Sequence record: PQ631072.1
Direction: 5' to 3' (one strand)
DNA: 64,000 bases
Source of the DNA: Escherichia phage EC.P2
The position numbers and the translations under genes were made by a program. Positions 1 to 33,596 of this stretch are shown in pieces. Every line of letters starts with the position of its first letter. The first letter of the stretch is position 1. Below the pieces are notes generated by a model. That model searched no databases, had not been told where the DNA came from, and saw nothing but the letters and a program-made list of their open reading frames with translations.

Positions 1-302
1 AGCGACTAGGTAGATTAGTTAAAGATTACGATGAAGCTACTTGGACTTCTTTACGGGAGAAGATTGTCAAGCGTGGTTTGTATCTTAAATACACACAAAA
101 TGAAGATCTCAAAAATAAACTTATCGCTTACGCAGATAAGGAGTTCGTAGAGGCAAGCCCTTATGATTCTATTTATGGTATCAAAATGGGGATGTGGGAT
201 CGTGATGTGGAAAATAAGGACTGTTGGAAAGGACAAAATCTTTTAGGAAAATGGCATACAGACCTTGCTGTTTATCTAAAAGCACAATCTGATATTTCCT
301 GA
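1..302 (+). CDS. NADAR-domain (YbiA-like) protein, C-terminal fragment; 5' end outside window
   Basis: In-frame translation from base 3 ends ...KEFVEASPYDSIYGIKMGMWDRDVENKDCWKGQNLLGKWHTDLAVYLKA*, matching the conserved C-terminal block of the NADAR family as recalled. Confidence 0.55.
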   Translation, partial: RLGRLVKDYDEATWTSLREKIVKRGLYLKYTQNEDLKNKLIAYADKEFVEASPYDSIYGIKMGMWDRDVENKDCWKGQNLLGKWHTDLAVYLKAQSDIS

Positions 303-4864: not shown

Positions 4865-5080
4865 ATGGCTAATATCCGCACCTTGTTAAAAAATGCAAAG
4901 CAAGTTTTATTTTCAGATGACGAATATTTTAATAAAGATATTACAGGCGTGAAAAATCTTAAAGATGTGAAAGATGTTATCGGTATCCGTGGATCTTTAC
5001 GTAAAGGTGACATATACGGTAACAAGGTGCAATATAAATTGTCAAAAGATTATGATTTTACTTTGACAATTATTTCATAA
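4865..5080 (+). CDS. Hypothetical early protein (71 aa; start moved to internal ATG after hairpin)
   Basis: Track ORF 4817 starts inside hairpin 4824-4843; ATG 4865 has an RBS. Confidence 0.5.
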   Translation: MANIRTLLKNAKQVLFSDDEYFNKDITGVKNLKDVKDVIGIRGSLRKGDIYGNKVQYKLSKDYDFTLTIIS

Positions 5081-5170
5081 AACTACTTGCAAACCTGGTA
5101 AAATAAAGTAAACTATATTCATTAAGGCGGTGGAATAGCCCACCGCCTAACAAAGAGAAGAGGAAACATC

Positions 5171-5341
5171 ATGATCACTTTCGCCACCCGTGAAGCCGCT
5201 CGCAACGTTGCACGTAAAGTTAACGCCGCCAACCTGGGCGCTACGCTTAAAGCCCCGGTGAAAGATGAATCAGGAAAATGGATCTTTCCTGGTCTGCGTC
5301 ACGCTGATAAGCTGGGAACATTAACGTTAAAAAATAAATAA
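5171..5341 (+). CDS. Small hypothetical protein (56 aa)
   Basis: ORF after hairpin 5127-5147 and RBS aggaaac. Confidence 0.4.
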   Translation: MITFATREAARNVARKVNAANLGATLKAPVKDESGKWIFPGLRHADKLGTLTLKNK

Positions 5342-5427
5342 TATTCGCTTGACAGTAGCATCATTTATAAGTAAAGTAACAACAACGGCGGGAAATGGTT
5401 TCCCGCCATCAATAAAGAGATAAGATT

Positions 5428-5787
5428 ATGAAATCAGCAAAAGCAATTAAAACTTACATTTTATCGGCTATTTCTTTTGATGGTACTACAACCGAAAAAG
5501 AAAAAATCACCGAACTGATGCGCCGTTTTAATTCTGAATACTGGTATCCCGATAATCAAAAACGTTACAATTATAACGTGATCAAGGCAATAGCCTCATG
5601 GTTACAAGGTTTACCGTCAGAAATCAATATTGCTTTTGATTATAACGAGATCGATCACTTGTTAATTGAATGGAAGTACATAAAAGAAACAAGCAAAGAA
5701 ACAACCGTTACCCGTGAGCGGGAAAATTATTGGTTATATATTGCAAGCATGATCGTAACTTTGGCAAAATATCATAACGTAGCGTAA
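5428..5787 (+). CDS. Hypothetical early protein (119 aa)
   Basis: ORF; promoter 5348-5376, hairpin 5388-5407, RBS. Confidence 0.6.
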   Translation: MKSAKAIKTYILSAISFDGTTTEKEKITELMRRFNSEYWYPDNQKRYNYNVIKAIASWLQGLPSEINIAFDYNEIDHLLIEWKYIKETSKETTVTRERENYWLYIASMIVTLAKYHNVA

Positions 5788-11739: not shown

Positions 11740-11820
11740 AATAATAATCATTCTCATTTATAGCTGATTATTTATGCAATAAACTGAATAATGCAATAAT
11801 GATAATCATTCTTAACTTAA
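11740..11820. promoter_or_regulatory. Fur-box-like repeat cluster (second region)
   Basis: aatgataatcattctcatt and aatgataatcattctt. Confidence 0.4.
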
Positions 11821-12130: not shown

Positions 12131-12654
12131 TTCATACAATAATTATAACAAGAAATATAATTCGCAAGCGTATCATTAGCAGCCTATGCCGGACACATAG
12201 GCGGCTAATAATAACGCAACTACACATCCCACATAATAACCATCACCGATAGTTATTATTTGTGCTTATGTAGCTTGCAACAACTGCAAGCGCAACAATA
12301 TACATGGTATATTGTATTCCCTTACATTGTTGCGGTGCGTTATTATTAGCTAATGTTTGGAACATTGGCTATAATATAAGCTATCCAATAATAAACATAG
12401 TGAATAATAACCCTGATGATCATAATGCGCCACCTTCCAGGGGGCGCTATGTGAACACAAAGAAATCTTTCTTGTCAAGAAAAATATTACCATTATTGCG
12501 CAAAATTATTTACATCTGAATAGATGGTTTTTCATACTATTGCCCCCAAATTATGCCCCTTTTGTTGCAATATAAACTACTATTTGTTGAGCCTACTTTC
12601 TTAAAAGCGCAATAAATTAGAATTATCTTGATTTTTAGGACGTTTTATAGTATA

Positions 12655-12885
12655 GAAAGTATGCAAATGATAATCATTATCAGCTATCTTCCACGGGTGG
12701 CACTATTTCACGCAGGATCATTTCATTTGGCAAGGTGTATATAGATGTTTAGACTTGCCAAGTCATTGATTTACTTAGAATTTATCTGTTTTGTTGGGAA
12801 TAGTGCCTTTATTGTTCAGAAAATAATCAAAAGTCTTATAAGTCATTGAATGATAATGCAAATGATAATAATTCTCATTGATATT
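12655..12885. promoter_or_regulatory. Fur-box-like repeats incl. perfect core aatgataatcattatc (12664-12679)
   Basis: Also gaatgataatgcaaatgataataattctcatt near 12845. Confidence 0.45.
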
Positions 12886-13237
12886 TGAGGGGGACGGTCG
12901 GCAGAAATCGGGGGCGCTGAAAATCGCGTTAAGCACCTCTCGCAAGCGAGCAGTATTTTGCGGCAAGTTATTGATATTATTGACTTTACGCTTATGAAAA
13001 GGGGGTGTGTCGAAATAAATCGGGTATACCGGAAAATTTTTGTGGCATAGATATTTATTTGTCTATATTATGTACTAAGGGGTGTGTTAAAAATAATAGG
13101 TATATATAGAATAATTGATAGGGAAATCCTATACTAAATCCTTCATTAATGATGTTCCTATGTTGCTGTCCTTGTAACAGATGAAAAGACGCTGTATGAT
13201 GTGTGGCATGAAACGTAAATTTATAAAGGAGTCTGAT

Positions 13238-31122: not shown

Positions 31123-31695
31123 TTAATGTGTTAATGAAACTGCGTAACTAAACACAGGTTCAGATATTACATCGGCTACAGTAATAAAAACGTCCTCATC
31201 TTGCGTTGTTTCTACACGACATACAGTTACACCATTTACTACAAATTCAACGCAATGTGGAATATCTTCACAAACGAATGTAGTGTAAGTAACACCCAAA
31301 GCATCATACAAAGATTTAACAGTATTTGCAAGTGCCGCAGTTTCTTCTTTTTCTGAGACAATGAATGCTGTAACAACAAGATTGTTTGCATAGTTTAGAC
31401 TGTCCTCTATAGCCAATGATTTACAAGGTAGTAATGCAAAATATTTACCTGGTTTAATCAGACCTGCTTCCCATTGATTCAAAATTGCTTGGGATGGTTT
31501 AGTAATGTAAAACAGATTTTCGCTTGGGTTATCAATATTACTTCTGGCAATACAACGTGAAGGATTATTAATATCAAACACATGATCAAAATCTACACAA
31601 ACTGGTAAACTGAAAGGTGTGAATTTTTTACCTAATAATCCTACTGCTGACAATATGTTTGCTGTGCTTATCTTCCCGTTAAAAGCTAAACGCAT
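31123..31695 (-). CDS. Hypothetical protein (190 aa)
   Basis: ORF. Confidence 0.55.
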   Translation of the reverse strand: MRLAFNGKISTANILSAVGLLGKKFTPFSLPVCVDFDHVFDINNPSRCIARSNIDNPSENLFYITKPSQAILNQWEAGLIKPGKYFALLPCKSLAIEDSLNYANNLVVTAFIVSEKEETAALANTVKSLYDALGVTYTTFVCEDIPHCVEFVVNGVTVCRVETTQDEDVFITVADVISEPVFSYAVSLTH

Positions 31696-31919: not shown

Positions 31920-32582
31920 TTATTTAATATTCAATTTTGCACAAAGACGTTGTACCGCTTTGGCATCGAACAAACTCCCACGAATAGTTCTCTTTCCTGA
32001 TTCATTCAGATGCTTTGCAATAGTCATATATGGCGTTTTACAAGCTCTGTATGCAACTAAAGAATCTTTTAAAGAAAGTGCAAACTCTTTTGAGCGTTTT
32101 GCTTCTTCCGTTTTCGTATAATCTGTTCTTTTGTATTTAGGGTTTGCTGCACCAAGAAGCGTTCCCTTCGCTTTTGCTACCTTAAGGCTCTTCTTAACAC
32201 GATCAGATATTGCACGAGCCTCTTCTTCTGCCAGAACTGCTAAAATATTTATTATCATATTTTCAGCGGAGGGCATAGTTGCTATCCGCACATTAATCAT
32301 CTCTAACAAGGTTGCAACAGAAGCTGTGTTACGTCCAAGACGGTCAACCTTAGCAACAACAAGTGTAGCACCTGTTTCTTTGCAAAGATTAACAGCTTTT
32401 ACAAGCTCTCTACGTTGCTTCCAATCGCCTTTACCAGAATAAAACTCTGCAAAGCTACCTACAATAGTATAATTTTCTTGTGAATCCAAGAAGCGTTGGA
32501 TATCTGCTTCCTGTGATTCTATACCATACTGGTTGCCTTGTTGTTTCTTCTTAGAAAGTCGATGATACAGTACAAACTTCAT
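31920..32582 (-). CDS. Serine recombinase (resolvase/invertase family)
   Basis: N-terminal YHRLSKKKQ (catalytic Ser), LVVAKVDRLGRN motif, C-terminal HTH-like segment. Confidence 0.7.
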   Translation of the reverse strand: MKFVLYHRLSKKKQQGNQYGIESQEADIQRFLDSQENYTIVGSFAEFYSGKGDWKQRRELVKAVNLCKETGATLVVAKVDRLGRNTASVATLLEMINVRIATMPSAENMIINILAVLAEEEARAISDRVKKSLKVAKAKGTLLGAANPKYKRTDYTKTEEAKRSKEFALSLKDSLVAYRACKTPYMTIAKHLNESGKRTIRGSLFDAKAVQRLCAKLNIK

Positions 32583-32639
32583 AATACCCTCCTGTTCTGT
32601 TGCAGGAAGTATGCACTACCTTAATGTTAAAGTCAACAG

Positions 32640-33094: not shown

Positions 33095-33596
33095 AATAGA
33101 AAGGTTGAGTTAAACCCAGCCTGTTTTTTGGGTCGTAGACGTACCAAGCATATGCTGTCTTGTCAGTACCACCTGCAACAAAAGATGGTCGTTCAGAAAG
33201 AACAATCAAATTTGTTGGTGGGTTCTGTTTATGGAATTCCCTTCGTTTAATAGACTCTAGGAACCCAAGACGCAACAAGTATATGCAAACGTCTGCTTCT
33301 TTTAAGCTCTTTTGCAAGAACTCAAGTGCAAGTCTGAATGGTGGATTTGTGATTATAATATCCGGCTTAGTATGCCATTCGTGGTTAAAATAATCCTTCC
33401 CTTCTTCTAACTCGCAATATTCTGATCCTTCTGGAAAATGTTGATAAATTGCAGCAGCAGCGCCTTTACACGGTTCTGCAAAAATAAAACCTTCTTCTTT
33501 AAGGTTATTAAAATCTATTACACTAAACAATGCATTTATACATTTTTGTGGAGTAGGATAGTAATCAGTTGGTGGACGATCATACTTATTTGCCAC
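33087..33596 (-). CDS. Phage-type DNA N6-adenine methyltransferase, putative (169 aa)
   Basis: NPPF catalytic motif, EPCKGAAA AdoMet-like motif; size typical of small phage Dam proteins. Confidence 0.6.
   Translation of the reverse strand: MANKYDRPPTDYYPTPQKCINALFSVIDFNNLKEEGFIFAEPCKGAAAAIYQHFPEGSEYCELEEGKDYFNHEWHTKPDIIITNPPFRLALEFLQKSLKEADVCIYLLRLGFLESIKRREFHKQNPPTNLIVLSERPSFVAGGTDKTAYAWYVYDPKNRLGLTQPFYFV

Follow-up and report, generated by a model that had tools for sequence, protein, structure and literature searches.

Several described systems come close to the gene reported here. Phage P1 encodes Cre, a site-specific recombinase that is able to circularise terminally redundant incoming DNA and to resolve dimers, and the large serine integrases act on simple sites and need neither accessory sites nor supercoiling. 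Small serine recombinases include the resolvases Sin, Tn552 Bin3 and Tn3/gamma-delta, as well as Gin, Hin, Cin, Pin and Bacteroides Mpi. We analysed a 64,000-nt stretch of the genome of Escherichia phage EC.P2 (PQ631072.1; hereafter the window, to which coordinates refer) carrying the gene of a 220-aa serine recombinase that corresponds to gp053 of phage phi92. The protein shares its catalytic domain, active-site residues, domain order and approximate size with Sin, Tn552 Bin3 and Tn3/gamma-delta, and like Gin, Hin, Cin, Pin and Mpi (Gin profile E=1e-16) it is a small serine recombinase encoded in a phage genome. The question posed by the gene is what role a site-specific recombinase has in a strictly lytic cycle. 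Our preferred answer, to which we assign a probability of about 0.35, is that the enzyme flips no segment of the phage genome and instead acts early on the phage's own DNA, in a resolvase-like manner and at a simple site.

The gene is already known and annotated: the phi92 annotation describes gp053 as 'putative recombinase, resolvase family protein / DNA invertase', and the RefSeq product name is 'DNA invertase'. We found no experimental study of it in the literature, only speculation. The genome papers disagree: two that deal with related phages report the absence of a recombinase gene (PMC5374246, PMC10269720), and another guesses, without data, that a 'resolvase' keeps concatemers as single genomes (PMC10282059). 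What is new at the descriptive level is the autonomous promoter, the strong constraint, the relocation, the large family in virulent phages and the lack of a classical site architecture.

Results

A sequence-only reading of the window had classed the gene product as a serine recombinase from the resolvase/invertase family, and this assignment was borne out. The open reading frame is real (Table 1), and Pfam Resolvase (PF00239) matched residues 4-141 with 78.3 bits (cut-off 23.3; E=8.4e-22). Both strings quoted in that reading, MKFVLYHRLSKKKQ... and TLVVAKVDRLGRNT, were found in the translation, the catalytic serine being S10. PHROG 125 ('DNA invertase') also matched the protein (1e-31), and a further match (1e-25) covered the N-terminal half of PHROG 95 ('integrase'). 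In an alignment of 40 relatives with 25-88% identity, Q24, E46, A63, R81, R84, E121 and R128 were invariant, and Y6, R8, S10, D80 and others were at least 90% conserved. By alignment, Y6, R8, S10, Q24, E46 and R57 are equivalent to Y6, R8, S10, Q19, D36 and R45 of gamma-delta resolvase, and D80, R81, R84, E121 and R128 to D67, R68, R71, E118 and R125. An AlphaFold2 model built from the alignment of relatives (mean predicted local distance difference test score 88.5) comprised a catalytic domain, a long E-helix, a linker of ~20 residues and a four-helix C-terminal domain. The PF00239 score, the catalytic constellation and the catalytic fold with its long E-helix place the protein in the serine recombinase superfamily. 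With the full catalytic set present, it is an intact small serine recombinase that is predicted to be catalytically competent. A proposed C-terminal helix-turn-helix (HTH) stood in part: the model has a four-helix domain in this position, but a Pfam search of the protein detected neither an HTH nor an HTH_7 domain in the C-terminal part.

The phage is a virulent phi92-like myovirus (Justusliebigvirus, Stephanstirmvirinae), and the region matches 55 records of such phages at 97.8-99.2% identity. Across all 55 Justusliebigvirus records the gp053 protein shows at least 99% identity, and in at least 40 records it is 100% identical. Among five genomes of the genus, the ratio of non-synonymous to synonymous variation (pN/pS) was 0.034 (68 synonymous versus 8 non-synonymous differences, summed over pairs), in the same range as for PhoH, HslV, the methyltransferase (MTase) and the DprA-like gene. 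The recombinase is therefore a working gene, not a decaying passenger, and constraint of this strength argues for a function that benefits the phage. In the Phapecoctavirus phage Schickermooser (NC_048196; locus L002), a homolog is spread over three frames at 4870-5546 and only a 128-aa C-terminal coding sequence is annotated. We set this truncated copy aside as uninformative, its several frameshifts reflecting either a pseudogene or (homopolymer) sequencing error.

A putative sigma70-type promoter precedes the gene (Table 1). We compared the window with 11 other loci, namely FKP3, ESCO5 and contigs whose recombinases are 81, 78, 72, 57, 50, 50, 45, 38 and 36% identical. A TTGAC(A/T) element separated by 16 or 17 nt from a -10 element was found 52-64 nt before the ATG in 10 of the 11 (11 of 12 with the window). 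The promoter-bearing loci span 38-100% identity, their neighbouring genes differ, and in one locus a terminator lies ahead of the promoter. As a control, we inspected gene starts in the window between 28 and 38 kb, where 2 of 21 had a promoter of this kind, one belonging to the recombinase and the other to a gene located behind a terminator. As far as the sequence comparison goes, the recombinase gene is a self-contained cassette with its own predicted host-type promoter. A promoter of the sigma70 type implies transcription by the host RNA polymerase, which probably takes place from the start of infection.

Two further elements upstream of the gene were considered and rejected. A perfect palindrome over the -10 element in FKP3/L005 (ATGAAGAGTA-GTGCA-TACTCTTCAT), a candidate operator or site, is conserved neither in the window nor in the other loci. 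A leader hairpin occluding the Shine-Dalgarno sequence was discarded, since the leaders measure only ~20 nt and in 8 of 9 loci their folding z-scores were close to 0.

In Phapecoctavirus, the cassette has a different position. When the window proteins were mapped on the complete genome of 536P1, positions 116.8-123.5 kb were colinear with the gp047-gp061 block. The homolog of the recombinase (57% identity) was located at 103.5-104.2 kb on the opposite strand, among small early genes and ~15 kb from the syntenic site, where the gp054 homolog (119797-119606) is followed by a hairpin, the gp052 homolog and gp051, with no recombinase between. Compared with Justusliebigvirus, exactly the promoter-plus-recombinase unit of ~730 bp is missing between gp054 and gp052. 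Homologs of gp052 are found directly 3' of the recombinase in three loci (L004, L006 and L007) and in the distant L010 (E 1e-4 to 1e-19). The gp052-like gene after a recombinase of 50% identity in L010 suggests that the phi92 arrangement is probably ancestral. Judged by these gene orders, the gp052-like gene would be an ancestral downstream neighbour that is independent of the recombinase, as Phapecoctavirus kept it without the recombinase. No inverted or direct repeats were found at the edges of the cassette. The idea that the gene is part of a small mobile insertion was thus only partly upheld: a promoter-plus-gene unit was relocated in Phapecoctavirus, but terminal repeats are missing, the unit is fixed in 55 of 55 records and purifying selection is strong.

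An invertible DNA switch had been suggested as well, together with a search for inverted repeats in the flanks and the rest of the genome. This search yielded only chance-level pairs and terminator hairpins. In whole-genome self-comparisons of VEcB (Justusliebigvirus) and 536P1, all significant inverted repeats were GC-rich terminator hairpins that recur at several places, and non-hairpin inverted pairs of 20-34 bp were absent from both genomes. All 55 assembled genomes of the genus were colinear with window positions 25001-50000, the only records matching in two places being those whose ends cut the region. Of 80 family loci from IMG/VR, 67 lacked inverted repeats with 16 or more identical nt in the 4 kb around the gene, and the repeats in the remainder were scattered; 78 of 80 loci lacked such a repeat in a shuffled control. 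Taken together, five repeat and colinearity tests leave the suggested switch, the invertase reading and the RefSeq name 'DNA invertase' unsupported. A single-copy site would be consistent with the lack of an inverted-repeat pair in the genome.

Three complete genomes and the window were colinear with the exception of one 872-bp block, ~4-5 kb to the left of the window start, that is inverted in PD211 (OM401812, 86102-86972) relative to A150 (MG065639, 58396-59267) and VEcB (OZ035773, 75091-76247). The block contains a pair of small genes together with the 5' end of a 216-aa gene, and an extra 83-aa gene lies at one edge. With no inverted repeats at its junctions and a gene replacement directly at its left edge, the block is an illegitimate one-off rearrangement and not a switch. 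Other candidate sites were also rejected. A local pair at 32595-32611 and 33167-33183 (17 nt, 82%) and others within 29-36 kb were at chance level, the former being one of 39 pairs in 7 kb. The best long inverted pairs across the window (23965/28346 and 1890/7698) were self-palindromic terminators. An inverton-like pair at 1379-1405 and 1914-1940 consists of the similar ribosome-binding site and start regions that two divergent genes possess; their exact core of 13 nt is at chance level, and the orientation did not change in any genome. Dyads common to both genera comprised only terminators, a Fur-like palindrome and one dyad in a conserved structural gene (flanks 89% identical), and no dyad near the recombinase gene was conserved among nine loci.

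The surroundings of the gene had been described as a lytic-phage-like block lacking a repressor and tail-fibre genes, in agreement with our results. No repressor, integrase or tail-fibre gene was detected within ~7 kb of the recombinase by Pfam, PHROG or the phi92 annotation, and the neighbours include PhoH, an HslV-like peptidase, a DNA MTase, a phosphatase and a DprA-like protein. The same three sources revealed no transposase at the virulent-phage locus. Searches of 5,426 complete E. coli genomes and 72,556 plasmids gave no match to phi92-like DNA, and the recombinase matched no defence or anti-defence family in PADLOC. An IS607-type transposase was rejected: such enzymes carry a MerR-like HTH ahead of the catalytic domain, often with TnpB as a partner, but in gp053 the catalytic domain comes first and the DNA-binding domain last, and a TnpB-like neighbour was not seen. 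Curated NCBIfam equivalogs scored far below their cut-offs (CcrB 35.8 versus 900, Mpi (NF009949) 33.5 versus 272 and YneB 29.8 versus 175; XisF likewise).

The recombinase is one of a large family of ~220-aa proteins that is common in phage contigs and on small plasmids. A library of 1.84 billion representatives yielded 2556 clusters at E<=1e-10, and the best 150 were nearly all 210-245 aa long and matched end to end, which indicates that the protein is not a truncated integrase. Relatives with 51-57% identity occur in Phapecoctavirus, allied coliphages and Klebsiella phages, the value being 55-57% for Phapecoctavirus and allied genera; others are encoded by Vibrio and Shewanella phages of 130-140 kb (30-49%) and by Cellulophaga podoviruses. 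Their settings include a T4-like context beside rII and NAD-salvage genes, the vicinity of a P22-type portal and a ClpP/YopX block. Full-length relatives of ~35% identity are also present on many plasmids, including plasmids of 6-7 kb on which they lie beside Rep and ParA/ribbon-helix-helix (RHH) genes.

Profiles of the catalytic domain were equidistant from Tn3/gamma-delta (1e-17 to 5e-16), Sin/Bin3 (1e-16) and Gin (1e-16). In Foldseek comparisons, the best fit of the catalytic core was to Sin (template modelling score 0.70-0.76, root-mean-square deviation about 3-3.6 A). The best whole-chain alignments were to large serine recombinases including their recombinase domain (Bxb1, 9iu2_A, E=2e-7; phiC31, 4bqq). 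Near the C-terminus, the motif IAxxLNxxGxxTxxGxxW...V.R is similar to the beginning of the Pfam Recombinase domain, and a match to PF07508 was seen in one member of the family (P0078).

Phage phi92 has fixed ends with direct terminal repeats (DTRs) of 343 bp, which map to window positions 12590-12931. Clusters of near-palindromes of the type AATGATAATCATTATC lie at 739-861, 11741-11813, 12661-12697 and 12856-12892, the last two inside the DTR. When palindromes were compared with the E. coli Fur-box consensus GATAATGATAATCATTATC, allowing up to 3 mismatches, the window contained 5 matches versus 0.05 expected. In 536P1, two near-palindromes of the DTR (12663 and 12858) and a further one at 761-783 have kept their positions, although the flanks have diverged. 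The palindrome cluster at the left of the window adjoins three tandem repeats of 70-79 nt (501-721) in the kilobase of lowest GC content (0.31). These repeats are iteron-like and could be a candidate replication origin or packaging site.

Table 1. Features of the recombinase locus in the window; protein domains are given in residues
Feature	Position	Strand	Basis or remark
Small serine recombinase coding sequence, 220 aa (= Phi92_gp053)	31920..32582	-	Open reading frame list, Pfam, phi92 identity, AlphaFold2, pN/pS
Catalytic domain	1-141		AlphaFold2 model
E-helix	108-138		AlphaFold2 model
Linker	139-161		AlphaFold2 model
Four-helix DNA-binding domain (predicted)	162-216		AlphaFold2 model
Putative sigma70-type promoter of the recombinase (TTGACT, 17 nt, CATACT)	32608..32636	-	Consensus scan; 54 nt before ATG
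Ribosome-binding site AGGAGG	32588..32593	-	Read from sequence; 6 nt before ATG; same site annotated in phi92
gp052-like small gene, 67 aa	31707..31910	-	Begins 9 nt past the recombinase stop
gp054, 67 aa	32640..32843	-	Upstream neighbour; other cassette edge

The minus-strand block around the recombinase encodes Sir2, two MTases, a DprA-like protein, a NinI-like phosphatase, an HslV-like peptidase and PhoH, as well as lysozyme, dTDP-rhamnose genes, Nrd, thymidine kinase, a polymerase exonuclease subunit and a ligase. The gp051 homolog (31123-31695, minus strand, 190 aa) is labelled 'histidyl tRNA synthetase' in PHROG 4806 and RefSeq and has no Pfam match. Because of this, and because the protein is far too short, the label is likely a propagated mis-annotation. 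Between 1854 and 9925, the window contains at least 10 copies of a ~70-nt unit in which a sigma70 promoter (TTGACA-17-TAAAGT) is followed by a GC hairpin (GGCGGGAAATGGTTTCCCGCC), located at about 1854, 4468, 4776, 5375, 7679, 8023, 8271, 8594, 8869, 9052 and 9873. The units occupy the part of the genome richest in insertions and deletions and recall the T4-type promoter-stem-loop cassettes that shuffle early genes. Four UNVERIFIED records, MG065639, MG065645, MG065656 and MG065689 ('Campylobacter phage A150/A145/C3/A110a'), are ~98% identical to phi92-type coliphage genomes over their full length, and their Campylobacter host label is probably a contamination or mislabel.

Discussion

An intact and constrained enzyme, a host-type promoter, the lack of an inverted site pair and the lack of lysogeny lead us to infer that the recombinase acts early on phage DNA at a single type of site. 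In this scheme it would join or delete DNA between directly oriented copies of the site, and one site per unique genome sequence would suffice. By one route, already suggested in the sequence-only reading, the recombinase would separate circular replication intermediates that are multimeric or entangled, which is presumably what its relatives on plasmids do. By the other, the incoming linear genome would be circularised via a site that each of the two 343-bp DTRs contains, comparable to Cre/lox of P1. The fixed ends with their DTRs, and the two near-palindromes conserved in position within them, can be cited for this second route. The position of plasmid relatives beside Rep and ParA/RHH genes is a classic setting for a multimer resolvase and favours the resolution route. 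The predicted whole-chain fold, which is near that of large serine integrases as users of simple sites, may count in favour of action at a simple site.

Several observations weigh against this proposal. Virulent phages package their DNA from concatemers, and resolution to monomers is not obviously useful to them. A res-like array adjoining the gene is absent; the upstream spacer of 57 bp is taken up by the promoter and the ribosome-binding site, and the downstream spacer measures 9 bp. Repeat and dyad scans of the phage genome did not reveal a recombination site. The palindromes of the DTR agree with the Fur box of E. coli in 16-17 of 19 positions, which makes host Fur, and likewise terminase, at least as good a candidate as the recombinase for binding them. 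Among the Salmonella phage records only UAB_1 was matched by the recombinase; PVP-SE1, whose genes are cited in the phi92 annotation as homologs of phi92 genes neighbouring gp053, gave no match. The movement of the cassette between sister genera and the restriction of Salmonella matches to UAB_1 suggest an accessory function and not one in core replication. The evidence from plasmid context, moreover, comes from two inspected plasmids.

A less probable explanation is that the early recombinase is directed at the host or at competitors and rearranges chromosomal, prophage, satellite or plasmid DNA or that of a co-infecting phage, in the service of takeover, anti-defence or exclusion. A dedicated sigma70 promoter is typical of early genes for host takeover, and the patchy spread of the family in unrelated large virulent phages (T4-like with rII and NAD-salvage genes, rV5-like, and a contig with a P22-type portal) would fit such a role. 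The whole-genome repeat and dyad scans, which found no site in the phage genome, can be cited in its favour too, but a missing single-copy site is also expected if the enzyme acts on the phage's own DNA. No positive evidence came to light, PADLOC gave no support, and the orthologs in Escherichia, Klebsiella, Vibrio and Shewanella phages would each need a different host target. We consider it improbable that promoter and recombinase form a selfish or formerly mobile cassette that was inserted or shuffled into intergenic positions and persists without helping the phage. The precise presence or absence of ~730 bp between gp054 and gp052, with the unit ~15 kb away on the other strand in Phapecoctavirus, is what such a cassette would leave, as are the varying neighbourhoods of other loci (L008-L010, L025-L027), the autonomous promoter and the spread of the family over phages and plasmids. 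However, the edges carry no terminal inverted or direct repeats, both genera have kept the recombinase since their split, and the pN/pS is 0.034. In 55 of 55 records the gene keeps its position and its product is at least 99% identical, unlike the sporadic homing-endonuclease genes.

That the protein is an invertase for tail-fibre or promoter inversion within the phage genome is largely refuted and has very little probability left. The PHROG 125 match, a weak full-length similarity to Mpi (33.5 bits) and the inverted block of PD211 point in this direction, but the Mpi score is far under the cut-off of 272 and no HTH_7 of the Hin/Gin type was detected. The repeats in VEcB and 536P1 were terminator hairpins only, the 55 genomes showed no inversion at 25-50 kb of the window, and inverted repeats are absent from the PD211 junctions and, at 16 nt or more within 4 kb, from 67 of 80 family loci. 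An integrase, or a resolvase serving a hidden lysogenic or plasmid-prophage state, is also largely refuted and hardly credible. The whole-chain fold is nearest to large serine integrases and plasmid-borne relatives exist, but the protein of 220 aa has neither a zinc-ribbon nor a coiled-coil domain, the E. coli genomes and plasmids searched contained no phi92-like DNA, and repressor or partition genes were not seen nearby.

Beyond the single gene, it is conceivable, if doubtful, that a large clade of ~220-aa serine recombinases forms autonomous early cassettes of virulent phages under host-type promoters and carries out a reaction new for lytic infection. This reaction would be either circularisation at a site in the DTR, possibly the Fur-box-like palindromes, or the rearrangement of host or competitor DNA. 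If the proposed simple-site circularisation or resolution of phage DNA is true, the recombinase would be a compact 220-aa enzyme of possible use as a tool. The phi92-like and phAPEC8-like phages are popular candidates for therapy, and automated screens flag 'recombinase' or 'invertase' genes as markers of temperate phages. The gene is fixed, constrained and probably expressed early, an invertible segment was not found, and thousands of E. coli genomes bear no trace of lysogeny. Together, these results argue against treating this recombinase as a marker of lysogeny.

The comparison with known systems shows where the recombinase departs from each of them. In contrast to Sin, Tn3 and gamma-delta, to which it is ~25% identical, it has no adjacent res with multiple subsites and no transposon or plasmid context and is encoded by a strictly virulent phage; its C-terminal domain has four helices, follows a linker of ~20 residues and is unmatched by HTH_7. 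Gin, Hin, Cin and Pin come with an inverted pair of 26-34-bp sites, an invertible segment and nearby tail-fibre genes in temperate phages, whereas the recombinase has none of these and its phage is virulent. Among the large serine recombinases (the integrases Bxb1, phiC31 and TP901-1, and CcrB), Bxb1 and phiC31 gave the best whole-chain fold matches and CcrB is the best NCBIfam match (35.8 bits, far below 900), but large serine recombinases have 450-700 aa, a zinc beta-ribbon, a coiled coil, attP/attB sites and a link to lysogeny, all of which are lacking in the 220-aa protein and its phage. The parallel to Cre/loxP is one of function only, as Cre is a tyrosine recombinase of an unrelated family with a different chemistry and P1 is temperate.

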